From Centroscyllium fabricii (taxonomy: Eukaryota), in NCBI GenBank assembly GCA_051313645.2, contig JBNRSN020000010.1, positions 10,974,001 through 11,038,000 of the forward strand: DNA of 64,000 nt, in the 5' to 3' direction. The notes below the pieces were generated by a model. That model did no database searches and was not told the DNA's origin. It saw only the letters and a program-made list of their open reading frames with translations. This document shows positions 17,865 to 54,246 of the stretch, one piece after another; within the stretch, counting starts at the first letter, position 1, and the number at the start of each line of letters is the position of its first letter. Both the position numbers and the translations under genes were made by a program.

Positions 17865-19573
17865 TTATTTGCAAATAAATGTCCAAGGAGTTTTCACTAC
17901 CTGCTTCAGCTCTTTCCTGAAATTAGTTTGCGTCGCTGCATAAATGCATGTGTTTGTACAGGAACTCAAATACACGAGCATATGTCCGGTTTCAACGGCA
18001 ATATAAGCAGGGGCTGCATAATCGCCTCGGTAATGCACGGTGCTTATCAACCTGGTAGTTAAAAAAGATACGACAGCTGTCACCCACAACAATATAAAAC
18101 TGCCCGATACACAGAACAGTAAAATAATCGATTTCCTCCGGCTCTCCATCTCTGGATCGCTCTGATTTACACTGCTCTGTCCACGTAATCCCCTGCGGGC
18201 TCTACTGGCCATTAAAATATGTCTAGCTGTCAAACAATTAAGCAGTAATATCAAAGCAAAGCTAAGCCAAGTGAAACAAATGCCACGTAACCAGAAAAGC
18301 GCCACTCCTAAAGTCGATGAAGAAAATTACACTCTGGAGCGGCAACCCCAGTGAACATTGTTAATTATTCTCTCAGGTTCAAATGCAAACCAATACAGAA
18401 GGCTCTGCAAACAGATCAGGACAGAGATCGTTGTTATAACAGCGGCGGCAGTTCTCACTGTGCAATACTTTGTTTTAAACCTGTTACAACATATAGCTAC
18501 AAATCGGTCAAATGTGAACGAGACTGTAAACCACACCGACAAATACACGCCGACACATTGCATATATATAATCAACTTACAAACGACAGTTAAGGACAGA
18601 AAGGAATGTGAAAAGTAATAACGTAAAATGCGGTTCACTAATAAATTGATGATCATGACTAGTAGATCTGCTGTTGCCATGGCCACCATGTAGACAGAGA
18701 TGCATTTGGAAAGGCCACAGTTTCCTCTGGAGAGAATCACGATTGTCAGTAGGTTCGCTGAAAGAAGCAGGGACAAGATGTCAGTAATGGGGTCATTGAG
18801 ATAAATCTCACAGATTATTGTGGGGAAATGTACGAATGTGTTCCTATTCAGCGTTATGCACACGGGTTATTATCATTAAAAAAGGCGAGGGTAAAAACAT
18901 TGTATTTATAGTGATGAAATCACTGAACATTCAATATAAGCAACTGCAATTCCGCGGTACATCCAACATATTTCAGTGGAGTATTAAATATAATTCCACG
19001 GCAACTAATGGAAAGAAAGTATTCAAATAAAACATTAAACGTCGATAAAGAACACGATCACATTATATCGAACTCCGCCGATAGGAGGGGCGCACCTTCC
19101 ACAGCGAAATTATTTCGTAAAATACCTTTCAGAATCGCCTGCTGGGTGAAGGTTTCTGCATTCCGAGTAATTATGAACTTAACGTAGACAGGGAATACGC
19201 ACAAATTACGTGATTACAATGGGAACTGAGCAAAACATTGTTCAGTGAGCTATGTGTTGTTGGAGAGGCTGGGGAATCAGGCTCGCCGTCCTTCAGTATT
19301 GGGATGATCATTGAGCGCCCGGTGCCCGAGATCTATCCACCAGAACAGCGCCTCAGCAGTCGCACGGCCAACTAGGATTGCCGCGGATTTTCACCGACTG
19401 ATCCCACTGAAAAAATGACTCTGCAGTGTGGACATTCTCGTAATCTGTTACATTAACACTGAGATAGTAAACAGGTATTAGGCAACATGATATATTGTCT
19501 TACCGGGAATGCCAAATGCTGCGAGGACATGGTAGTAAATGTCCCGTATCTGTAAAATTATTGGCCGTACCAT
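17865..19573 (-). pseudogene. GPR139-like class A GPCR with premature stop (exon 1 19504-19573, exon 2 17865-18757)
   Basis: MVRPIILQIRDIYYHVLAAFGIP|ANLLTIVILSRGNCG with GT-AG phase-1 intron; LAxAD-like MATADL, FDRF and SSCTNTCIY motifs. In-frame TAA at 18327-18329 where the paralog has GAG. Confidence 0.88.
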
Positions 19574-34526: not shown

Positions 34527-37500
34527 GTTAGTGAGTATAGGAATAGGAGGATAGAGCAGCTTAATACGTGGCTCAAGAGTTGGTGCAGGATGGACTGCTT
34601 TAGTTTCCTGGATAATTGGCCCTGTTTCTGGGAAAGTTGGGACCTGTATAAGCCAGACGGTCTCCACCTTAACCAGAGGGGAACCAATATCCTGGCGGGG
34701 AGGTTTGCTAGCACTGTTGGGGAGGGTTTAAACTAACTTGGCAGGGGGCTGGGATACAAAGTGGAGTAAAAATAGGGGATGACGAAAAGGCAAATATTGA
34801 GGAAAAAACAAGTATGATTAGAAGGCAGAACAAAAGTTCGACACAAGGGAGTAGGGCAAGTTTAAATGGCATTTATTTTAATGCAAGGAGTCTTGCAAAC
34901 AAGGGGGATGAATTGAAGGTGTTGTTAAACACATGGGAGTATGACATTGTTGCCATTACAGAAACATGGCTGAGAGAGGGGCAGGACTGGCAGCTCAATA
35001 TTCCGGGGTATAGAATCTTCAGGAGAGACAGAGTGGATGGAAAAAGAGGAGCGGTGTTGCAGTATTATTCAAAGAATCAATTACTGCTGTAAGAAGGGAT
35101 GACATATTGACTGGGTTCTCTAACGAGGCCATTTGGGTGGAACTTAGAAATAAAACGGGGGCAAGCTCATTACTGGGAGTATATTACAGACCCCCAAACA
35201 GTCAGAGGGAAATAGAGGAACAGATTTGCAGGCAAATCTCGGAGGTGTGAGAAACAATAGGGTAGTAATTTTAGGGGATTTCAACTTCCCCAATATTGAT
35301 TGGGATAGCCAAAGTGGGAAGGGCTTAGAGGGTGCCGAATTCCTAAAGGTCGTTCAGGAGGGCTTTTTGAGCCAATATGTTGAAAGTCCAACAAGGGGGG
35401 GGGGCGGTTTTGGACTTAATCCTGGGGAACGAGGACGGGCAGGTGGTTGAAGTGTCAGTAGTAGAGCATTTTGGGGAGACTGATCACAATTCAGTGATAT
35501 TTAAGGTGGTAATGGAAAAGGACAAAGATGGACCAAAAGTAAAGGTTCTAAATTGGGGCAAGGCTGATTTTAATTTGATAAGGGAGAAATTGGGCAAAGT
35601 GGACTGGGATCAGCTACGCATAGGAAAGTCCGCTTCAGATCACTGCGGGGCGTTCAAAGAAGAAATTGAAAAAGTACAAAGGAAACATGTTCCCCAAAAG
35701 GTCAAGGGTGGGACAAATAAACCCAGGGAGCCTTGGATGTCGAGCGATATATTAAAACTGATTCAGAAGAAAAGAGGGGCTTTTGGAAGGCATAAAGAAC
35801 TGAAGTCCCAGGTGAGTTTAGAGGAATATAGAAGGTGTAGGGGGGTTCTTAACAAAGAAATTAGGAGAGCAAATAGTGGCCATGAGATAACATTAGCGGG
35901 CAACATAAAAGATAATCCCAAGGTGTATTATAAGTGTATTAAGGGTAAACAGATAACGAAGGAAAGTGTGGGACCCATCAGGGACCATAGCGGGAAGCTG
36001 TGTGTGGAGCCAGAAGATGTAGGTGGGGTTTTGAATGAATTTTTTGCATCTGTTTTTACGATGGAGAGGGGCGATACAGACAAAGAAATAGGACAGGAGA
36101 GATGTGATATAATTGATCGTATTAGTATTGACAGAGAGGAGGTAGTAGCGGTTCTAGCTGGCTTAAAAGTAGATAAGTCCCCAGGTCCTGACGAGATGTA
36201 TCCCAGGATGCTGAATGAGGCAAGGGAAGAGATTGCAGGGGCCCTGACACAATTTTTCAGAACCTCTCTTGCAACAGGGGATGTGCCCGAGGACTGGAGG
36301 ATAGCCAATGTTATACCATTATTTAAGAAAGGCAGTAGGGAAAAACCAGGGAACTACAGTCCGGTGAGCCTGATATCGGTGGTGTGGAAGCTACTAGAAA
36401 AAATTCTGAGGGACAAAATCAGTCTTCACTTGGAGAGTCAGGGATTAATTAAGGATAGTCAACATGGCTTTGTCAAGGGAAGATCGTGTCTGACTAATTT
36501 GATTGAATTTTTTGAAGGGGTGACCAAGTATGTGGATGGGGTAGTGCAGTTGATTTGGTCTACATGGACTTTAGTAAGGCTTTTGATAAGGTCCCGCATA
36601 GGAGACTACTCAAGAAGGTAAGAGCCCATGGGATCTAAGGCACCTTGGCACAATGGATCCAAAACTGGCATGGTGACAGAAGGCAGATGGTAATGGTCGA
36701 AGGCTGCTTTTGTGACTGGAGGCCGGTGTCCAGTGGAGTACCGCAGGGATCGGTCCTGGGTCCCTTGCTGTTTGTAATCTATATTAATGATTTGGATATC
36801 AACGTAAAAGGCATGATCAGCAAGTTTGCAGACGACATGAAGATAGGAGGGGTGGTATATAGTGAGGAAGAGATCTGCAGGCTGCAGGGGGATATAGATG
36901 AGCTAGTCAGATGGGCGGAACGGTGGCAAATGGAATTTAACCCTGAAAAGTGCGAAGTGATGCATTTTGGCAGGACTAACATGGAGTGGGAATACACCAT
37001 GAATGGTAGGACTCTAGGGAAGACAGATGATCAGAGGGACCTTGGTGTACAGGTACACAAGTCCTTGAAGGCAGCAGGACAGGTGGGTAGGGGGTCAAGA
37101 AGGCATATCGGATACTTGCCTTCATTAGCAGTGGCATAGAATATAAAAGTAAGGAGGTGATGATGGAACTGTACAAAACATTGGTGAGACCACATCTGGA
37201 GTATTGTGTGCAGTTCTGGTCGCCACACTATAGGAAGAATGTGATAGCTTTGGTGAGGGTGCAGAGGAGATTCACCAGGATGCTGCCGGGGATGGCGAGC
37301 CTCAGCTATGAGGAGAGACTGTACAGGCTGGGGTTGTTTTCTTTGGAGCAGAGGAGGCTGAGAGGGGACCTGATTGAGGTGTACAACATCATGAGGGTAA
37401 TAGATAGGGTCGATGGCGGGGAGCTTTTTCCATTGGTGGAAGGGGCAATAACGAGGGGGCATGGATACAGGGTGAGAGGCAGGAGGTTTTGGAGGGATGT

Positions 37501-38125: not shown

Positions 38126-40046
38126 GTCACAGACGGCAGTCTTCAGTCAATTCGATTCACTCCACCTGGAATCAAGAAATGGAAGAACCCACTGGAAACA
38201 GCAAATGCTGTGATATTCAACAATATCCCGGCGGTCGTGCTGACGACTTGTGCTTGGAGCTATTTGCCCCACCAGAAAAGCTGTTCCAGTACAGCTGCAA
38301 CACTGGCATCAGTGCAGCTGCAATACTGGCATCTGTTCGACAATGTGAAAAAGTGCCCAAATATGTCCTGTTCTCAAAATGCACGACAATCGAATCCGCC
38401 CAGCTACCGCCCGACCCGTCTATTCTCAATAATCTGCGAACTGATGGAAGGTCTCATCGACAGTGCTATCAAGCGACGCTTGCTCTCCAATAACCTGCTC
38501 TCCAATGCTCACTGTAGGTACCGGCAGGACCAATCTGTTGCAGTCATCATTACAGCCTTGGTCGAAACACAGGCAATAGAGATAAATTGGCGAGGTGAGC
38601 TGAGCGTGACTGCTTGTGACATGCAGACAGCATTTGACAGTGGCGGCCTACGCAAAGTGAAGTACATGAGAATCAGGGGGTAATGTATCCACTGGCTGGA
38701 AACAATCCTGCCTAGCACAAAGGAATATCACTGTGGTGGTTGCTGTTCAATCATCCCAACCCCAGGACAACGATGCAGGTGATCTTCAGCTTAATTTCCG
38801 ATGCGCAACGAACGTCAGCTGTTTCAGCAATGACGTTCCATCCATAATAAGTTCAGGAACGGGCTTATTCGCTGATGATTACAGAAATTTCAGTTCCATG
38901 CTAACTCCTCATGTAATGGAGCCGTCCATGCCCGCACGCAGGCAGTCCTGGACGGCATTCAGTCTTGGCTTCATATGTGGCAAGAAACATTCACGCCACA
39001 CAAGTGGCAGGCAGTGATTACTTTAGCAAGAGATAGTTGAAACACTGCCACTTGAAATTCAACGGCATTACCATCACTGAATATCTCACAATCAATGGGG
39101 TCACCACTGAGCAGAAACCTGACTATGATGCGCTGCGCAATATAGTAGATTCATCGCTGCTGCCCAACGTCCCATGACCAACCTTTTCATTATCAATTAC
39201 CCAAACCACCTAGATGCATCTGGCTCAGGGGACTGGCCTGCATGTATTTCTTATTTCAACAGCATTCATTTAAATAGCGCAATTAAATTAATAAAATCCC
39301 CAAGGCGCTTCCAATAGCGTAAGCAGACAAAATGCTAAGGAGCCAAATATGGAGGCACATGGACAGTTGACCAAAAGCTTGATTAGAGCTAGGTTTTGAG
39401 GACAGTCCTAAAGGCGAGGAGAATGGCAGGTTTCAGGGTAATTATTCCTGTATTTAGAACCTATACAACTCAAAGCACAGCAACTAATGTTGGGGCGAAA
39501 AACGTGTAGGATGCACAGGAGGGAAATTTGGCTCATCCTAGAATGTATATTGCGCCGACAAGCTATTTGACAATACAGAAACAGTGGTAGGATTATGTGA
39601 ATTGGTGTAGAGGTAGAGATATGCATCTTAAACATACACGGTAAATCTGATGTTGTGCTTTCGGTTGACGTCGACAAAGAGCAGCATGTGGATGCAAAAT
39701 AAAAGGAACAAAGAGTGTACATTTTGGGGTTAGAGGTAACGGTGCTAGAGTGCAAAGATAATCAATTTCATGATATTCTCTGGTTCATGCTGCATGGGTA
39801 AGTGTGGAAACAGGCGAGGGCAGTTCCACAGAGCTGGAAAATGGAGGAGAGGCGTGGAGATGGATGGTGTTGTCATCCCTGTCAAAGACGTGAAGAATGA
39901 GGATGGATAAGCACCATGGTCACCGTCAAAAAGGCTATCCTTTGTGACTTTGATAAGGGCCGTTTCAAGTGCTGTTCAAAGGCAGAAATTCGATTGTAGG
40001 GAATCGAAAAAAGAATTGTGGGAAAGATGGAAAGGATTTTGGGAGG

Positions 40047-40713
40047 TGTTGGAGTAAATTTTGGATGCTTGGACTAAAAGCTTTAATGGACTCTTTAAAT
40101 TTAAAAGGCATAAGAAACGCCGCCAAAGGGTTAACAGGGTAATACTGAGGACGTGTTGAAGAGAATTAAATAATATACATCTGCAGCATATTCTAGACGG
40201 TTTGAAAACTCCAAGGCTATGGGAACAGATACGAGGAGTGAGCTTCAACTGTGGAAACAGATTAGAAGTTAATTAAAGACGTAAATCAACAAAGGGACAT
40301 AGAGAAACTAACTAAAAACAGAATACAATGGGATCTTAGAAGAAGCTAGGGGGTAGTTGCAGGTGGAAGATAAGGTTAGCTTGTTGACGTAGGTTAGAGG
40401 TTATTGAGTTAATTGGCTAATAATAATGTAATATGCGTAGAAACAATTTATTGATTGGCTTAAGAAAATGTAACGCGCGCAAATGCTTTGAAATATTGTA
40501 AAAAAATGACTAACCGGAGCAGCTATTTTGAGAAAGTGTGACTAGCACTTATCTCCCGGAGCTCTGCTTGAATAAAATATACTCTCGCATTTTGAACAGA
40601 CAATCCGAGTTTCAGTTTTATTACTCTGTGTGATTAGGCTGAGTAGCGTCGATGTTCCTTCACGGTTCGTCCGCCAGGCTTCAGCTAATCAATACATAAA
40701 TTTTCCTACAACA
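40047..40713 (+). repeat. ERV 5' LTR (667 bp)
   Basis: TGTTG...CAACA termini; AATAAA at ~40571; about 18 differences from the 3' LTR by eye. Confidence 0.95.
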
Positions 40714-41030
40714 TCTCCGACGGGCACAATAATCAAGTGCCGGTGGACTCCTTAATTAAAAAGAATCTGAGGAAAGTTTGTGAGAGTATATCTTATTGGG
40801 TTTGGTCTTGGGACTCTCGGGAATAATAAAGCATTGTATGTGTTTTGCATTTATCTCTAACTTTTAAAGAAGCAGGTTAACTAGGGTTAAACCTTCGCGA
40901 TGCTTGGGCAGTCCGGACAACCCCAGGCGGTGATACACGTCGGTAAACGAGGTCACGAAACCGCGGTGACGAACGAGCACAAAGAGGTGGTGAGTGTTTA
41001 CTGGAGAGTGGTCGATAAAACGAACCAAGG

Positions 41031-42394
41031 ATGTGCAGTAAGAAAGTTAAACATGGGCTTCCGGGATCCCTAATTAACACTATATGACAGATAGAAGTTC
41101 GCTAATTGAGAAAATGCAGAAAGACGGATGGGATGTTAGTCAGTCATTAGAAATCCAACGAGCTTGAGTAACTATGCAGAAAAAGGATAAGACAAAGAAA
41201 GCAGGAGTTCTATTAGTCCACCAGCTGGCAGGATTACTTGAGCATGTAGAGAAAATCCGAGAGACTCAGACGGCCAAAACTAAAGTGATTGAAGACAAAA
41301 CTAAACAGTTAGAAGGCAAAACTAAAGAGATAGCAGACTTAACAAAAAAGATAAAAATTTTAGAAGGGATAAATCGAGAACAGTCTAAGGCTCGCAGTGG
41401 AGAATGGCATATGTATGCACCAGGGCCACCCCCGTGCGGACCATCAGCCCCCGTATTAGCGGAAGCTGAAATAGACGAGGAGGCTATGGCCCCCGTTACA
41501 ATAAGTCGGACAGCCGGGGGAGCAGGAAACCCAAAGGGAATATTTAAGCTTTTCACCCCCGGTGAAAGACAACAGATTTTGAAAGATCTAGGATGACTTC
41601 AACCTAGAAGTGCCAATACCAAGTTCTGGGAAAACCTGGATATGGTCGGGCTTGGACATAACCTCCACCTTAAAGATATCCACCAGTTAGTTAGGGCCGC
41701 CTGTCCGGTAGACCGTTGGCGGAACGTGCAGGCAACACAGGCAGTCGCTAATACGGACTATTACACAGGCCGTTGGGCTGACCAATTGCCACTCACGGCG
41801 GACATGCAGGCACAACAGGCACCCTTCCTACTGTTTAAGGCAGAAATACAGCGGGTCTTGTGAGACTCGCCAACAAACTGGAATAGGATAACCGCTACCC
41901 GACAGCAAAAAGTGGAAGAAGCATCTGAGTTTGGGGAAAGGCTATATACTGTTTACAAGGAATCCTCTGGGAACCCAGGGGCAGCAAGAACAGATCCCGC
42001 CTTCCTCCAGGCATATAAAGATGCATTTTCAGAACACCATCAACAGGTAAGTAATATGGGGGTAGTAACCCAGAGAAACTACGATGAACTAGTAGAATGG
42101 GCATGTGGGGTGGATAGTAGGAAGAATAAGGAAAACAGTGAAATTACGAATAAGGTTAAACAAGAGCGGGTGAATGCAACAAAACAAATTGTATCCCTAA
42201 AGGGAGTTTGTCATGGGTGCGGGAAGCCAGGACATTTTATTAAAGATTGTAAGGCTAAGAAAACATGTACCTACTGTACAAAGAATGGACACACCGAATC
42301 AGTGTGTTACAGTAAGCATGGTAGACCAGACGACCGTGCGACTCTGACCCCGGAGGATTTGCAGCTGTTCCAGCAATGGAAGGCTACCCAGTGA
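41031..42394 (+). pseudogene. gag: ERV gag (disrupted)
   Basis: ORFs 41174, 41642 and 41912 share one frame broken by TGA stops. Coiled coil, PPPC/PSAP late-domain-like motifs, and two CCHC knuckles (CHGCGKPGHFIKDC, CTYCTKNGHTESVC). The start is approximate. Confidence 0.88.
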
Positions 42395-45300
42395 CAACCC
42401 ATGGCCCCCATTCAGACAAAAAAAGGAAGGATGTATGTGTCAGCACTAGTAGGGGGCCGACAGTGTGAAATGCTAGTGGACACCGGAGCACCTGTATCAA
42501 TAACTAATCTTCCTCTTCCCATTACTAGCAAAAAGATTTGTATTACCGGAGTAGGAGGAGGAAAAACACCCGCCTTTCTCAGTACAGTACAACTAATACA
42601 GATTGATAAATGGTATATCCCAATGAAATTCTATGTGTGCAAAAATAGTGAAGGGACAATAATGGGGAGTGACCTAATGAAGGAATACCAGGTTTTAATT
42701 GACTGTGGCAACCAAAAATTAGAATGGCCAACCTTAAATGGTCACAAAACTAACTTGCAGTGTTTGGCTAACAATGTGAGTAAGATCGGTGTAGCCACAG
42801 CGATAGTTAGAGACTGGCAGGTGGACTCCAATGGATATGGAGATATTTGTACCTCCGTAGTAGGGATTTGGGCAAAGGACAAGCTGGATACAGGAAAGGT
42901 CAACATGGACCCCATTGTAATTCCGGGACCTGAGCACAAACCCCATAGACAATATCCGATCATGCCAGAAGCCAAAAAGGCGGTGGAGGAGATAGTGAAA
43001 GGAATGGTGCTCCAAGGTATTCTTCGAGAGACCACCAGCACAACCAATTCGCCCACCTGGCCGGTGAAGAAACCAGATAATAGTTATAGGTTCACAATTG
43101 ACTATACAGCCTTAAATAAGGTAACACCAAAACTCCACCCCATAGTGGTTTTGCCCAGCAACCATTTTAAATGGACTGGGTCCGGAACATAAGATATTTT
43201 CGGTTTTAGACATAGCTAACGGATTCTGGGCACTTCCATTGGACCCAGGATCTCAGGAGAAATTTGCCTTCACGGTAGGAGATAAACAGTATACGTGGAC
43301 CCGTTTGCCACAGGGGTTCCACAATAGCCCGGCAATTTTCCACCGGGCAATGAGCAACATCCTGAAGGACATGGAACTCCAGGATGGGAGCACCGTCCTC
43401 CATTATGTGGATGACCTTTTGATTGCGTCAGATACAGCCTCGGAACATGAGAAAGCACTGAAGGCTGTACTGATAGCACTCAGGGATGCAGGATTAAAAG
43501 CAAGCCCCAAGAAAGCGCAGATCGGGAAAACACAGGTCATTTATTTGGGACACCTCATTTCCCAAGGCATAAAAGAGATGCCCACTGACAGGAAGGCTAC
43601 AATACAAAAAATGCCGCAACCGGTAACCATTAGAGGAGTCAGGAAGGTAATGGGACTCTTTAATTACAGTAGAAACTTTATCCCTGAGTTCGCCAAAAAG
43701 GCTGAACCCATTCAACGATTGATAAAAGGAGGGAAGCCCGCTCTGGAACTCATAGAATGGGGTCCAGAACAAGAGCAAGCCTATAATAAATTAAAGCAAG
43801 AGTTAATGTCAGCGCCCGGATTAGAACTAACTGACATGAAAAAACCATTCCATATCCACTGTGATAATGAGGAGGGATTATATGCAGCAGTAGTGACACA
43901 AGAACATGGGAATAAACGCCGACCAGTAGCTTATTACTCCACGGCCGAAGGACCGGTGGTGACAGGACTCTCAAGGTGTGTCGCCACTCTGGACTGCGCA
44001 GCATGGGCAGTTCAAGTATGCAAACCTATCGTAATGAATGGGAGAATAGTCTTACACACCAAACACACTCTGGTGGAAATGCTTAACACGGGAAAGTTAA
44101 GATCAGTCTCCCACATAAGAAGTGCCAAATGGGAGGCGGTGCTGCTATCACCGAATGATTCAATCAGTATCGTAAGGGGTATAGGAGAAAACCCAGCCAC
44201 AGGAATGTTAGGAGCTGGACTTCCCCATAACTGCGGGGAAATAGATGATGAGGAAGCAGATAATAATATAAAGGACAGCCCACTAGAGGGAGCCGAAGAA
44301 ACATTTTATGTAGATGGATCCCGTAAATATATTGACGGACTGCCCCGAACGGGGTGGGCTGTAGTTAATAGTAAGATGGGAGTCAGCAAATCAGGACGAC
44401 TTGACGGAGGGTTATCCGCAAAAGTGGCCGAATTAGTAGCTCTGACCCAGGCGTTAAGAGAAGGAAAGGGTAAGATAGTTAATATCTACACTGACAGTGG
44501 ATATGCCTTTAGTGTAGTACATGACTACATGGTAGCCTGGGGACGCAGGGGTTACATAACGACAGGGGGAGAACCCATTAAACACCAAAAAAGAATAGAA
44601 GCTCTATTGGATGCCAGCAAGGAACCAAGACAAGCAGCAGTTATTAAAATAAAGGCACACCAGAGGGAACCCGACAAAATTAGCCCGGACTGGCAAAATC
44701 ACCAAAGTAACCGGGCTGCAGATGAGGCCGCACAGGCAGCTTTAAATTCAGCAAAAATAAAGGAAGAGCCAGTTAGCAGCCTTGAGCTGGAACCCGCAAA
44801 GGAACCCCAAGTCTGGAAAATTCAGGATGAAGCGCCAGACGCTGAAAAAGAAAAGTGGGTTAAACAGGGAGCTGACCGATGTGCTGCGGATCACGTATGG
44901 CGAAAGGAAGGTAAAGTGGTCGCGCCGGAATGTATACAGCACACTTTGCTGGAAGTACATCATGGTATCTCTCATTCGGGGAGGGAGGCCATGGATAAGT
45001 CATTGTGTAAAGAATGGTGGTGGCATGGGATTGGGAGAGACATTGCCACATTTTGCAGGCAATGTGTAATATGTGCCCAACATAACCCTGGGAAACCCAT
45101 AAAAAATAAAATGGGACACCAGCCGAGGCCCAAGGGACCTTGGGAACACATACAAATTGACTTTAAAGGACACCTGCCCCAGTCACACGGTAAAACCTAT
45201 TGTCTCGTGATAATTGATCAATTCACGAGATGGGTGGAAGCCATTCCAACCCGGAATTGTACTGCCCTAACGGTAGCAAGGATTTTGGCCGAGGAGGTAA

Positions 45301-46001
45301 TTCCGCAGTGAGTAACACCACTACAAATTGATTCCGACCAGGGGACACATTTCATGGGGAGGATTGTGAAGGTTATCTGTCAGTTCATGGGCAATAAACA
45401 AAAATTCCATATCCCATACCACCCCCAAAGCTCCGGAATGGTCGAGAGAATGAATCGGACACTCAAAAATGCCTTGGCAAAGGCAATACAGGAATCAGGG
45501 AAAACATGGGTTGAGGTTTTGCCCATCATTTTGATGGGATTACGGGCAACCTCGAACCGTGCTACGGGGTTAGCTCCCTATGAACACATTACAGGAAGAG
45601 CAATGTAGCTACCGGAGGGCATAATCACTGGTGGGGCAGATGTCGGTCCCTTCAAAGCCCGACTGCGGCGGTACGTCGTAGAATTAAGCGCACAATTAAG
45701 GGAGATGCGTAGGACGGTACGAGACCAGCAGGCGGCAAAAGACGAGGCAATACAGACAATCCTCGCACCCGTGCCGGCTGCTGGTAGCAAGGTTATGGTA
45801 AAAGTCATACCGGCACAGCCGGGGTTTGCACCCAAATGGAACGGACCATATGAGGTTATTATTAGCGGAGATACTTGTGCATGCATGGCGATAAGGGGAA
45901 GGGGGGTTTGGAAACACTGGACTCAGTTGAAGGTGTATGATAAAAGGACAAGTTCAAACGAACCCACTAAAATCAGGGACACTGAAAAGAAAAGCGACTG
46001 A
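42395..46001 (+). pseudogene. pol: ERV pro-pol (PR, RT, tether, RNase H, IN); one frameshift near 43150 and stops at 45309 and 45606
   Basis: LVDTGA; NSPTWPVKKPDNSYRFTIDY; WTRLPQGFHNSP; HYVDD; FYVDGS/AELVAL/YTDS; HHCC zinc finger; IQIDF...DSDQG...GMVERMN; GPY/F motif KWNGPY. Confidence 0.95.
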
Positions 46002-46086
46002 GCGAAACATTAGAAGAATATGTGACACTGTGTTATGATAACTATATTAGCGGAATGTTTTTGTATCTGCTTTACAGATCACCTGA

Positions 46087-46335
46087 ATGTACGATTCCCT
46101 TATTTGTTTGCCCATTTGGGCATTTGTATTTTGGCTAAGTACAACTTTTGTGCTTCTTAGCGTGTATGTTAATGTGTTAATACAAGACTGCTATCATAAA
46201 CGCGCTCGTCAGGCTGAGAGTCAGCCTTTAGTTAGAAGCAATGATGTGGAGATTGATCGGTTTAGCTGTGATTACATGCATTGCTTTGGAGGCACTAGGC
46301 CCCCTGCAGGTCAGGAAGCGAGAACTACATGTTAA
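46087..46335 (+). CDS. Putative ERV accessory ORF, 82 aa, single N-terminal hydrophobic helix, overlapping the env start
   Basis: Intact ATG ORF 10 nt after a pyrimidine-rich acceptor (ttttgtatctgctttacAG, 46076-46077); hydrophobic LICLPIWAFVFWLSTTFVLLSVYVNVLI. Confidence 0.45.
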   Translation: MYDSLICLPIWAFVFWLSTTFVLLSVYVNVLIQDCYHKRARQAESQPLVRSNDVEIDRFSCDYMHCFGGTRPPAGQEARTTC

Positions 46336-47467
46336 CACGTTCTTATATATGTCATACGAGCATGCTAAGGAAAACCAGCGGAGTAGCTGTTGGATTTGTT
46401 CCCACATCCCGGTTCATAGTAAAGGGGGAATTCCACTGAGACCGATTCCCCTCAATCTTACAGAAATCCAACACCACAGGAATAGGGACACCGGAAGGAG
46501 CGATATGTTGGGTGAGAGAGATCAACATTGGGAATGCAAAACATAAGGATAGTACAGCAGTGGGGTATAGTCGATTTAGTCAAAACTGGACGTTACTTAA
46601 TCAGGGATCAATTACGGAACGGTGGTGGTTTAATACCTCCACCTTACAGAATAAAACTGATAATGGAAGATGGAGGGGGAGAGTGAGTTGCACAGGTCAG
46701 TCAGGATTTCCGACCTGGTCACTTCATCTGGAGCTTACTGCCTACAACGGTACATACTTTATATGTGGTAACAAGGCATACCCCTGGCTGCCACCAAATT
46801 GGATTGGATCATGTTATTTGGGATTTGTGGTACCGTATGTGTATCACATTAAATCACTGCTGGGTCACTTCCATCATAAGAGCAAACGAGCAATAACTGA
46901 GACAGAAAGATTTTTTGCTATTCTGTTCCCCATGTATGGAACGACTAGATTAGCAGCAGAAATTAGGAACAACGCTCGAATCCTTGAATAGGTAGCCAAT
47001 GACAATGCGGAAACACTTACGGGAATAAACGCCGAATTGGTAGCAACCAGAACGGTTGCGCTACAGAATAGAATGGCATTAGACTACTTGTTAGCGGAGA
47101 AAGGGGGAACGTGCGCTCTAATTGGACAAGAATGTTGCACGTATATCCCCGACAGTTCAGAGAACGTAACCAATTTGGTAGCTCATATTAGAAAAGAAGT
47201 TAAAGAATTACATCGGGCCCCGCCCCAGTGTGGCTTGACTGGCTAGGGCTCACCGGATGGGGTCCCTGGGTGGCGCATATATTACTCGTGATCATTGCTA
47301 TATGCATTGCCATGTGCTGCTTATTTGCTGTTATTAAAATCTGCTGCAAAGCTGCTATTACACAATTAATGCCTATAAGTGCTGCCGAAATCGATACCCT
47401 GTTGACCGAAGAGGATGAGCAGAAGAAAGAAGACAATGACTGTGTGGATAATAGCCAGTGGCTGTAA
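46241..47467 (+). pseudogene. env: ERV env, gamma-type (disrupted)
   Basis: Signal peptide MMWRLIGLAVITCIALEA; SU CWIC; furin KSKR; fusion peptide; [14 protein letters not shown]; CX6CC (CALIGQECC); TM anchor. Frameshifts near 46510 and 47225, stop at 46989. Confidence 0.92.
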
Positions 47468-47529
47468 GCGTCAGCACTGTGAAGATCGATCGATGGTCAT
47501 CTGGGTCAAGCACGGCCTTGCCCAGAACC

Positions 47530-47540
47530 AAAAGGAGGGA
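47530..47540 (+). other. ERV polypurine tract
   Basis: AAAAGGAGGGA immediately before the 3' LTR. Confidence 0.85.
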
Positions 47541-47541
47541 T

Positions 47542-48207
47542 TGTTGGAGTAAATTTTGGATGCTTGGACTAAAAGCTTTAATGGACTCTTTAAATTTAAA
47601 AGGCATAAGAAACGCCGCCAAAGGGTTAACAGGGTAATACTGAGTACGTTTTAAAGAGAATTAAATATTATACAACTGCAGCATGTTCTAGACGGTTTGA
47701 AAACTCCAAGGCTATGGGAAAAGATACGAGGAGTGAGCTTCAACTGTGGAAACAGATTAGATGTTAATTAAAGACGTAAATCAACAAAGGGACATAGAGA
47801 AACTAACTAAAAACAGAATACAATGGGGTCTTAGAAGAAGCTAGGGGGTAGTTGCAGGTGCAAGATAAGGTTAGCTTGTTGACGTAGGTTAGAGGTTATT
47901 GAGTAAATTGGCTAATAATAATGTAATATGCCTAGAAACAATTTATTGATTGTCTTAAGAAAATGTAACGCGCGCAAATGCTTTGAAATATTGTATAAAA
48001 ATGACTAACCGGAGCAGCTATTTTGAGAAAGTGTGACTAGCACTTATCTCCCGGAGCTCCGCTTGAATAAAATATACTCTCGCATTTTGAACAGACAATC
48101 CGAGTTTGAGTTTTATACTCTGTGTGATTATGCTGAGTAGCGTCGATGTTCCTTCACGGTTCGTCCGCCAGGCTTCAGCTAATCAATACATAAATTTTCC
48201 TACAACA
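47542..48207 (+). repeat. ERV 3' LTR (666 bp)
   Basis: Copy of 40047-40713; retains TATAAAA at ~47994 and AATAAA at ~48066. Confidence 0.95.
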
Positions 48208-48499
48208 GGAGGCGACAATAAATTTAAGTATTTGGACAGCAAAATGATGTTGGAGATGTGGCAGTAGATTGCAATAATCAGCGGGATCAAGGGCTGATTC
48301 GTCAGGGTGGACTAATGGAGACAGATGGGAAAGGGAGGGGGACAGTACCATAGCAGCATTAACCGTTCACAATATCAAAGAGCATGGGGTTAGGAAGATA
48401 AACTAGATAATGAGCTGTTTAGTGGGAATGGGGTTAAGGCAGCAGCAGGAAGTTTTCGGGGACAACACATGCTTGGAGATTACACTGCGGGAAATACGG

Positions 48500-50455: not shown

Positions 50456-50540
50456 GTTGATGGCAATCCAGGTGTTTTCCTTTTCATAATTAACAGATTC
50501 CCAACACTGCTATTAAATGTTTAAATTTCTCTGAAATGTC

Positions 50541-50952
50541 CGGCGGCACGGTGGCACAGTAGTTAGCACTGTTGTCTCACAGCACTGGAGACCCGGGTTC
50601 AAATCCAACCTCGGGTACCATTTGTGTGGAATTTGCACATTCTCCCCGTGTCTGCGTGGGTTTCCTCCGGGTGCTCCGGTTTCCTCCCACAGTCCAAAGA
50701 TGTGGGAGTTAGGTTGATTGCCCATGATAAATTGACCCTTAGTGTTAGGGGGATAGAATATGTGGGGTTACGGGGATAGGGTGGGATATGTGACGATGCA
50801 GGCTCGATAGGGATCGAGGGATATGGGGAGAGGGCAGGGGGGGAATACTGATTTTGGATGATCAGCCTTGATCTCATTGAATGGTGGAGCAGGCTCGAAG
50901 GGCCGAATGGCCTACACCTGCTACTAGTTTCTATGTTTCTATGTTTCTATGT
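50541..50952 (+). mobile_element. Full-length HE1/V-type SINE
   Basis: A box (TGGCACAGTAG), B box (GGTTCAAATCC), V-domain, CR1-derived tail (TTTCTATG)3, and flanking ATGTC repeat. Absent from the paralogous site near 16230. Confidence 0.92.
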
Positions 50953-52532: not shown

Positions 52533-54246
52533 TTATTTTTGCAATTTTTTGCAAGTAATTGTCCAAGGAAGTTTTGTCGCCTGCTTTAGCTGTTCCCTGA
52601 ATTTAGTTTGTGTAGCTGCATAAATACATGTGTTTGTACACGAACTCAAATACATGAGCATATATCCGGTTTCAGCGGCAATATAGGCAGGGGCTGCATA
52701 ATCGCCTCGGTAATGCACGGTGCTTGTCACACTAGCAGCTAAATTAGTAACGCAAGTTGTCAGCCACAACAGTATAAAACTGGCGGATACACTGAACAGT
52801 AAAATGATTGATTTCCTTCGGCTCACCATCTCTGGATCGCTCTGATTCTCACTGCTGTGACCCCGGAGTCCCCTGCGCGCTCTATTGGCAACTAAAATAC
52901 GTCTGGCTGTCAAACAATTAAACATTAATATCAAAGCAAAACTAAGCCAAGAAAAACAAATGCGACGTAACCAGGAAAACATCACTCCTATAGGCGATGA
53001 AAAGAACTCCACACTGGAGCGGCAACCCCAGTGAACATTGTTAAATGTTCGCTCAGGTTCAAATGCAAACCAAAACACGAGGCTCTGTAAACAGATCAGG
53101 ACAGAGACGGTAGTTAAAACTGCGGCCGCAATTCTCAATGTGCAATACTTTGTTTTAAACCCCTTACAACATATAGCTACAAATCGGTCAAATGTGAATG
53201 AGACTGTGAACCATACCGACAAATGCAAGGCGACACATTGCACGTATATAATGATCTTGCAAACGGCAGTGTAGGACAGGAAGGAATGTGGAAAGTGATA
53301 ACGTAAAATGCGGTTCACTAATATATTGAAGATCATGACCAGTAGATCTGCTGTTGCCATGGCCACCATATAGAGGGAAATACATTTGGAAAGGCCGCAG
53401 TTTCCTCTGGAGAGAATCACGATTGTCAGTAGGTTCGCTGAAAGAAGGAGGTAAAAATGATCAATAACGGAATATTCAGAAAAATGTCACAGCTTATTTA
53501 GGGACATTTTCGGATATGTCACTATTCAGCGTTATGCGCACGGATTTTATTATGTAAGCGAGTGTAAAGACATTTTAATTATAGTACTAAAACCACTGAA
53601 CATTCAATATCGAGTAGATGAAATATGCCGTACGTCCAGCAAACTTCAGTCAAGTATGAAATATAGTTACATGTCAATTAATGGAAAGATATAATTAAAA
53701 TAAAACATTCAACTCCGGTAAAGACTAATCATATTATACTAAAATGCTGCGTAGAGGAGGGGAGCACATTCCTGAGCGGATATTATTTCATAAAATAACT
53801 TTCAAAATACCCTCTTGGGTGGAATTTCCGCAATCCGCGGAATTATCAACTAAATGTAGAAAGGGAACAACGGCTCAAATTACGTGATTACAATGGGCAG
53901 TGAGCAACATATTCTTAATAGGCTTTGTGTTGTTGGAGGTGCCGGGTAACACGCCTCTTTCCCCCTGAATTTACTGATGAACATTGAGTGCCCGATGCCC
54001 GCGACCTAGAGACCAGAAAAGCGCCTCAGCGATCGCGCCGACAGCAAAGATTTCAGCTGATTTTCACCGACTGATCCCGGTGAATAAACAATTCTGCAAT
54101 GTGGACAATCCCAGAATCTGTTACATTAACACTGAGATATTGAACAGCTATTAGGCAACAGGTAACATTGTCTTACCAGGAATGCCAAATGCTGCGAGGA
54201 CATGGTAGTAATCGTCCCGTATCTGTAGAAATATTGGCCGTACCAT
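52533..54246 (-). CDS. GPR139-like orphan class A GPCR, intact, 324 aa (exon 1 54177-54246, exon 2 52533-53437)
   Basis: MVRPIFLQIRDDYYHVLAAFGIP|ANLLTIVILSRGNCGLSKC...; canonical GT-AG phase-1 intron; 975-nt CDS without stops; seven hydrophobic segments; MATADL, FDRF, KYCT, SRRKSIILL and SSCTNTCIY motifs. Confidence 0.9.

Follow-up and report, generated by a model that had tools for sequence, protein, structure and literature searches.

Did a shark retrovirus carry an accessory gene between pol and env, and is that gene preserved as a short open reading frame (ORF) in one decayed copy? The copy lies in a window of 64,000 nucleotides, which is the whole stretch of DNA that was analysed, from a contig of Centroscyllium fabricii (JBNRSN020000010.1, positions 10,974,001 to 11,038,000 of the forward strand). 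Positions 40047-48207 of the window hold a full-length but decayed class I endogenous retrovirus (ERV) with a gamma-type env and a length of 8.2 kb. The parts of this provirus are as follows.

40042..40046 (left) and 48208-48212 (right), no strand: target-site duplication of 5 bp, flanking both LTRs
40047..40713, + strand: 5′ LTR, 667 nt, with a poly(A) signal at 40571
40900..41073, + strand: leader ORF, 57 aa when unspliced, in frame with the strong-context Met-Gly ATG 41053
41174..42394, + strand: gag remnant with a zinc knuckle, internal stops at 41594 and 41861, and a terminal TGA in frame with pro
42395..46001, + strand: pro-pol remnant (protease, RT with YVDD, RNase H, integrase) with a frame change at about 43146-43192 and stops at 45309 and 45606
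46241..47467, + strand: gamma-type env remnant with a signal peptide, CWIC, immunosuppressive domain, CX6CC and membrane anchor
47542..48207, + strand: 3′ LTR, 666 nt, with 17 mismatches and 1 gap column against the 5′ LTR (2.55%)

Along the provirus the Pfam families occur in the order zinc knuckle, protease, RT, RNase H, integrase and TLV_coat, and the closest solved structures to Pol are gammaretroviral RTs. The features of a class I ERV with a gamma-type Env were found, namely LTRs, a target-site duplication, the gag-pro-pol-env order and a gamma/epsilon-like RT, together with CXXC in SU and an immunosuppressive domain and CX6CC in TM. Judged by its sequence, the provirus appears to be an epsilon-related class I ERV of this kind. 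Passages of a survey describe the same combination for epsilon-related class I ERVs, with an MLV-like pol, a shared frame for gag and pol, and an Env with CXXC, immunosuppressive domain and CX6CC (bioRxiv 10.1101/2021.11.23.469661). The hosts named for class I ERVs with a gamma-type Env in passages of that survey and of PMC4422223 are fish and amphibians, including cartilaginous fish.

Stops and frame changes in gag, pol and env number about 8 in all, and the damage to env consists of frame changes near 46440-46546 and 47204-47246 and a stop at 46989. The window provirus is dead, so any function of the small ORF belonged to the replicating family. A second internal copy was not found within the window, which holds only short LTR-like fragments. 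A TGG-type primer-binding site is absent after the 5′ LTR (window 40714-40735), and we know of no tRNA end that matches there; either decay of the window copy or an unusual primer would explain this oddity, and self-priming was rejected because complementarity to the LTR extends over no more than 6 nt. The distance between the LTRs gives an age of about 58 million years with the rate in passages of PMC4422223 and about 6 million years with the mammalian rate given there, each rate being an assumption. At the 5′ end, ATG 41053 may be the true gag start, and a leader-extended Gag, beginning at ATG 40900 in the same frame, may once have existed. At its other end gag terminates with TGA followed by CAA, in frame with pro (42392-42400). 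In gamma- and epsilonretroviruses, gag readthrough usually takes place at TAG. A furin-like RKR site lies directly after the Env signal peptide (46304-46330), in addition to the SU/TM site, and is common to the env homolog P0001.

The interval between pol and env had drawn attention in an earlier note, which claimed a strong splice acceptor, an intact 82-aa ORF just past it that overlaps the env ATG in another frame, and a donor-like site in the leader. All of these were found again, and the signals and parts are listed below.

40987..40995, + strand: candidate major splice donor GTG|GTGAGT, a sequence candidate only, at which the intron would begin at 40990
46058..46077, + strand: candidate env splice acceptor (pyrimidine tract and CAG), likewise a candidate
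46084..46086, + strand: TGA that abuts the ATG of the small ORF in the same frame and would close a spliced leader ORF after 32 codons
46087..46335, + strand: small ORF of 82 aa with a weak ATG context and the stop TAA at 46333-46335, intact in the window copy
46102..46182, + strand: hydrophobic helix, residues 6-32, a predicted single membrane span
46216..46233, + strand: ESQPLV, residues 44-49, a match to the ExxxLV acidic-dileucine-type motif

The AG at 46076-46077 is preceded by 14 pyrimidines in 18 positions. It ranks first among the 15 AGs found after the pol stop and before the env ATG, and its pyrimidine count is matched by 4 of the 546 AGs of the internal region. The candidate donor is one of four GTRAGT sites from 40600 to 46078. 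Leader ATG 40900 lies exactly 30 codons 5′ of this donor, and splicing of 40989 to 46078 would yield a 32-codon ORF terminating on the TGA that adjoins ATG 46087. ATG 46087 is the first ATG 3′ of the acceptor, with T at −3 and at +4; two tiny ORFs with weak ATGs (4 and 2 codons) follow it, and the env ATGs have G and A at −3. The sequence contexts, with a weak first ATG and a purine at −3 for env, fit the pattern expected of leaky scanning. On the minus strand a competing ORF was sought at the same locus and rejected, as the longest open stretch is 56 codons.

Other splice-like sites were seen in the element. Within gag (41992-42052), 36 nt lie between a strong acceptor at 42010 and CAG|GTAAGT at 42047, the best donor of the element, and are a possible micro-exon. 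The donor at 42047 also joins 46078 in phase 0, and that frame terminates at the TGA before the small ORF. A donor-like site at 40780 and an acceptor-like site at 40869 with a branch-point-like CTAAC suggest a possible short leader intron.

The small ORF extends 95 nt beyond the env ATG at 46241, which is in a different frame. Ribosomes that start at ATG 46087 would thus miss env, and this arrangement would suit a regulatory overlapping upstream ORF (uORF), the translation of which throttles Env output while its peptide is of little import. Retroviral uORFs do set Env ratios, according to passages of PMC13762970. However, an element that acts only in cis predicts neither of two patterns in the family variation described below, the sparing of second codon positions across the helix and the silent changes in the ESQPLV codons, and we regard this explanation as very unlikely.

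A second rival is that the ORF arose by chance in a T-rich stretch that is hydrophobic in any frame, and that its conservation reflects splice signals at the RNA level and a small, linked sample. In shuffled sequences, an ORF of at least 50 codons was present in 8-12% of the cases; when such a helix was also required, the share among composition-keeping shuffles was 2.2-3.3%. The combined layout (first ATG at most 30 nt from the acceptor, at least 50 codons, hydrophobic) was present in 0.8-1.7% of 5000 shuffles; it is unusual, yet it was found post hoc. The intactness of the ORF in the window copy is weak evidence, because a frame of 249 nt would survive intact about 70% of the time at the density of breaks in gag, pol and env (an estimate, from about 8 in 6 kb).

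In terms of the protein, the hydrophobic N-terminal helix claimed by the earlier note was confirmed, with a best 19-residue hydropathy window of 2.09 and a single membrane span predicted at residues 6-32. The tail (residues 33-82) is charged, with 7 K/R and 7 D/E, and is neutral overall, so that the acidity of Vpu, the HIV-1 protein with which the layout had been compared, did not hold. The helix alone is uninformative, because the stretch after the acceptor is 44% T and this composition yields hydropathy in most shuffled frames: 67% of the composition-keeping shuffles reach 1.6 and 32% reach 2.0. The env frame over the same stretch is nearly as hydrophobic (1.93). In a structure model built from the single sequence, residues 7-45 form the one helix predicted with confidence, and the tail is poorly defined. 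The hydrophobic span has five residues in front of it, and a basic patch, HKRAR (residues 37-41), comes directly after the helix; this arrangement suggests an N-out/C-in topology. A [DE]xxxL[LIV] motif such as ESQPLV is present in 0.7% of shuffled tails, a frequency to be read with the fact that the motif was found post hoc in a scan of five motif types. The DSGxxS beta-TrCP motif and an acidic tail are absent, as is a Gly2 for myristoylation.

These features also raise the rival that the protein is real and had another job, either as an oligomeric viroporin or as a cell-cell fusogen similar to FAST/sORF2, for release or germline entry. Vpu itself forms channels, according to passages of PMC8402909. 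With 82 aa, one membrane helix, an adjacent basic patch and a nearby cysteine, the small ORF recalls the anatomy of FAST/sORF2 proteins, for which passages of PMC11952523 give a range of 63-107 aa, one membrane span and a juxtamembrane basic patch. In contrast, those proteins have an ectodomain of about 30 residues where the small ORF has about 5 residues before the helix; the small ORF has no myristoylation motif, and the element has an env of its own. Another job of this kind is considered quite unlikely.

The variation within the ERV family was examined in public sequencing runs. In nine of the 11 runs listed, which come from 3 studies, 22-36% of the words of the stretch were present, and 6 of the 9 were compared, all as contigs; the species may differ from that of the window, one run may be the window's own source, and depth is not equal to copy number. 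Within 46090-46332 there were 36 listed single-site differences, of which the one at 46152 was set aside as an alignment by-product of a contig with a 2-nt loss. Each difference was scored against the codon of the window, and the original and the replacing letter of each difference were preserved in the permutation.

In the frame of the small ORF, 15 of the 35 listed differences were synonymous against 8.3 expected (permutation p=0.007; omega-like ratio 0.42), an excess to be read with the caveats that sites are linked within few lineages and that several statistics were tried. The CpG-matched version gave p=0.010, and adding back 46152 gave 16 of 36 (p=0.003). The numbers were 11 of 35 in the env frame (p=0.34) and 6 of 35 in the third frame (p=0.89), and the synonymous excess was confined to the small-ORF frame in 8 of 8 site sets, with omega-like ratios of 0.35-0.51. 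None of the 35 created a stop in this frame (2.0 expected, p=0.12); the counts cover listed differences only, and as the long contigs hold more, an unlisted stop is possible. Within the helix, codon position 2 was changed in none of 9 listed differences (3.0 expected, p=0.02). Four of the five listed changes in the ESQPLV codons were silent, and the fifth was at an x position. Of the 11 differences that fall where the ORF overlaps env, 6 were silent when read in the small-ORF frame (p=0.02) and 3 when read as env; env is poorly conserved against P0001 in this overlap.

The indels gave a similar picture. The commonest was an in-frame loss of 3 nt, listed in 5 of the 6 runs at 43-96% of the summed depth there. 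Contigs that are about 88% alike were gap-free over 46109-46262 (17 other letters) and 46153-46344 (23 other letters), and equally divergent contigs over 45891-46083 had 6 gaps. The stretch 46051-46096, with the acceptor, the TGA and the ATG, had zero listed variants in the six runs, and 7.3 would be expected at the density of the ORF. RNA runs were absent from the listing, and the contigs of the six runs, which by nature are unable to reveal splicing, had no joint at the acceptor.

The excess was smaller or less certain in parts of the data. Without 5 sites that are possibly private to the window, 12 of 30 differences were synonymous (p=0.03), and without those and 3 low-depth sites, 10 of 27 (p=0.07). 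The divergent lineage alone had 7 of 15 (p=0.03) and the remainder 8 of 20 (p=0.08); the figures were 9 of 24 (p=0.08) for the non-overlapping part on its own and 4 of 12 (p=0.47) for the segment that directly follows the helix. A net 2-nt loss inside the helix accounted for about 5%, 6% and 12% of the summed depth in runs X3, X7 and X9, and contigs with this loss were absent from the listings of X1, X4 and X6. In these contigs the frame would run into a stop at 46158 if no compensating change lies beyond the contig, and other gaps occur in a few low-depth contigs. One lineage may have spread without the small ORF, which lowers the claim for a gene. The spread of ERV lineages without env is likewise common.

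Over most of the listed family variation the small ORF is open, and the possibility that it is broken across the family, on which the earlier proposal could have failed, was not borne out. That proposal, of an accessory membrane protein translated with env by leaky scanning, gains from the ATG contexts, the synonymous excess and the ExxxLV motif, and loses from the minority that is frameshifted in the helix. An origin by chance accords with the hydrophobicity of shuffled frames, the subset p values of 0.03-0.08, the frameshifted minority, and passages of the survey according to which epsilon-related class I ERVs with a gamma-type Env lack accessory genes (bioRxiv 10.1101/2021.11.23.469661). 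It is at odds with the frame-specific synonymous excess, with the lack of stops among the listed differences, and with an in-frame main indel and gap-free divergent contigs, and chance seems somewhat unlikely. It is the family variation that moves the case from an analogy of layout to a probable gene: the 82-codon frame was probably coding.

A different origin of the hydrophobic segment would be the true N-terminus of Env, split off by a frameshift in the window copy. Long Env leaders are known in foamy viruses, MMTV and HERV-K, and the segment could have been one of them. The evidence has already largely refuted this: the env-frame stops at 46136, 46178 and 46229 intervene, the latter two without a listed variant, and none of the listed indels would join the frames. 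A complete Env signal peptide begins at 46241, and P0001 (53% identical over 87 columns) opens with a hydrophobic leader at the matching place. Longer proteins that match the small ORF were not found in the searches, which is weak evidence. The segment is therefore highly improbable as the start of Env.

Searches for relatives of the small ORF gave no Pfam family at E≤0.1, and no homolog in word-index searches at similar and longer lengths, the result at longer lengths being weak evidence. The ESM Atlas gave none either, with a recognition of 1460 that is below the level typical of known families and is uninformative. Foldseek on viral models had 0 of 120 matches at E≤0.001. Three HMMER matches among 1.84 billion representatives were rejected as multi-stretch matches to repetitive proteins. 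These blank searches say little, because even env found one relative (P0001) among 65 candidates. Among related loci, scans of viral contigs gave a single locus, rejected as a phage false positive, and a metagenome scan gave 2 loci. One of the two (L002) is a distant ERV in which env overlaps the end of pol without an intervening ORF; it was also observed that positions 622-2859 of this metagenome contig hold an intact gamma-type env of 745 aa.

Searches of the open-licence PMC and bioRxiv literature gave no description of a small ORF of this kind in shark ERVs; the lineage lists and genome maps that accompany bioRxiv 10.1101/2021.11.23.469661 may include the present family. Passages on the elephant shark CmiERVs leave an accessory gene unmentioned (PMC4422223), and those on amphibian ERVs contain nothing comparable (PMC12690878; bioRxiv 10.1101/2024.07.05.601823). 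Further background came from passages of PMC4977317 and PMC10892966.

Membrane-anchored accessory proteins ahead of env are known from lentiviruses, with Vpu as described in passages of PMC8402909. Vpu has 81 aa and the small ORF 82 aa; both have a single N-terminal helix (residues 6-29 in Vpu, and 6-32 here, where insertion is predicted), a gene located 5′ of env that overlaps env in another frame, a weak start suited to leaky scanning, and an ExxxLV in the tail, which here is ESQPLV with putative binding. According to PMC3315493, the antagonism of tetherin by Vpu depends on ExxxLV. HIV-1 also has a uORF that ends at the start of vpu and boosts Env (passages of PMC13762970), two codons long compared to the predicted 32-codon spliced leader ORF here. 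In contrast, similarity between Vpu and the small ORF was undetectable by sequence or fold, in keeping with the earlier note, which claimed no homology. The small ORF lacks the DSGxxS and its tail is neutral where that of Vpu is acidic; the motif sits about 12 residues past the helix, whereas in Vpu it belongs to a second helix of the tail; and the carrier is a class I ERV with a gamma-type Env and not a primate lentivirus. The small ORF is Vpu-like in layout, size and motif, but outside the Vpu family.

In equine infectious anaemia virus (EIAV), the S2 gene lies ahead of env and overlaps it. Its product resembles that of the small ORF in being a small accessory protein without homologs and with an ExxxLL motif (passages of PMC11769393 and PMC10892966), and it counters SERINC5 through ExxxLL and AP-2 (passages of PMC11769393). 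Unlike the small ORF, which has a predicted membrane span and no Gly2, S2 is described in those passages as anchored by myristoylation. Among fish viruses, passages of PMC12193657 describe ORF1-3 and the 3′ORF of snakehead retrovirus (SnRV), and genes of walleye epsilonretroviruses, as small ORFs of spliced mRNAs. SnRV differs in forming a separate clade and in having a genome of 11.2 kb versus 8.2 kb here, and a description of the SnRV or walleye ORFs as membrane proteins is absent from these passages. Claims made from an ORF only need caution, because the product of the SnRV 3′ORF is largely dispensable in culture according to the same source.

The whole explanation that we prefer, an accessory gene for a single-pass membrane protein with adaptor sorting driven by ExxxLV, is given an even chance. 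Under this explanation a splice from 40989 to 46078 would put the small ORF and env on one mRNA. The spliced leader ORF would stop on the TGA abutting ATG 46087, and ribosomes leaving the TGA would be poorly placed for an immediate restart and well placed for env, 154 nt on; leaky scanning past the weak ATG 46087 would also reach env. The product would span the membrane once, N-out/C-in, and its tail motif may bind a clathrin adaptor and divert a host membrane protein into the sorting pathway, in the manner of Vpu and EIAV S2. The target would be a restriction factor such as tetherin or SERINC. A function as a trafficking adaptor similar to Vpu or S2 is, by this analogy, possible and is proposed tentatively. 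It is unlikely, though the analogy allows it, that an equivalent of Vpu against tetherin or SERINC arose independently in a class I retrovirus of sharks, with the same size, the same place, the same control by a uORF and leaky scanning, and the same ExxxLV.

If the small ORF is conserved in the shark family, then simple-looking ERVs conceal short genes under the usual ORF cut-offs. If the reading as a Vpu equivalent is true, the locus would bear fossil witness to an arms race over tetherin in cartilaginous fish, and a group reported to lack accessory genes would have one. Tetherin is reported in passages of PMC6002735 to be older than the split of cartilaginous and bony fish, and the small ORF can therefore be used to probe the counter-measures of shark retroviruses. 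The intact ORF is a direct and cheap route to ask whether these viruses countered tetherin or SERINC, and it bears on whether the ExxxLV trick arose more than once.

In the surroundings of the provirus, two similar frames of rhodopsin-family GPCRs (7tm_1) were seen at 52536-53486 and 18330-18866, both on the − strand and with the provirus between them, which suggests a receptor gene cluster. Remnants of LINE reverse transcriptases and a SINE-like stretch, the latter presumably of a type typical of sharks and rays, were seen at 951-2609 (− strand), 35371-36618 (+ strand) and 50513-50725 (− strand).
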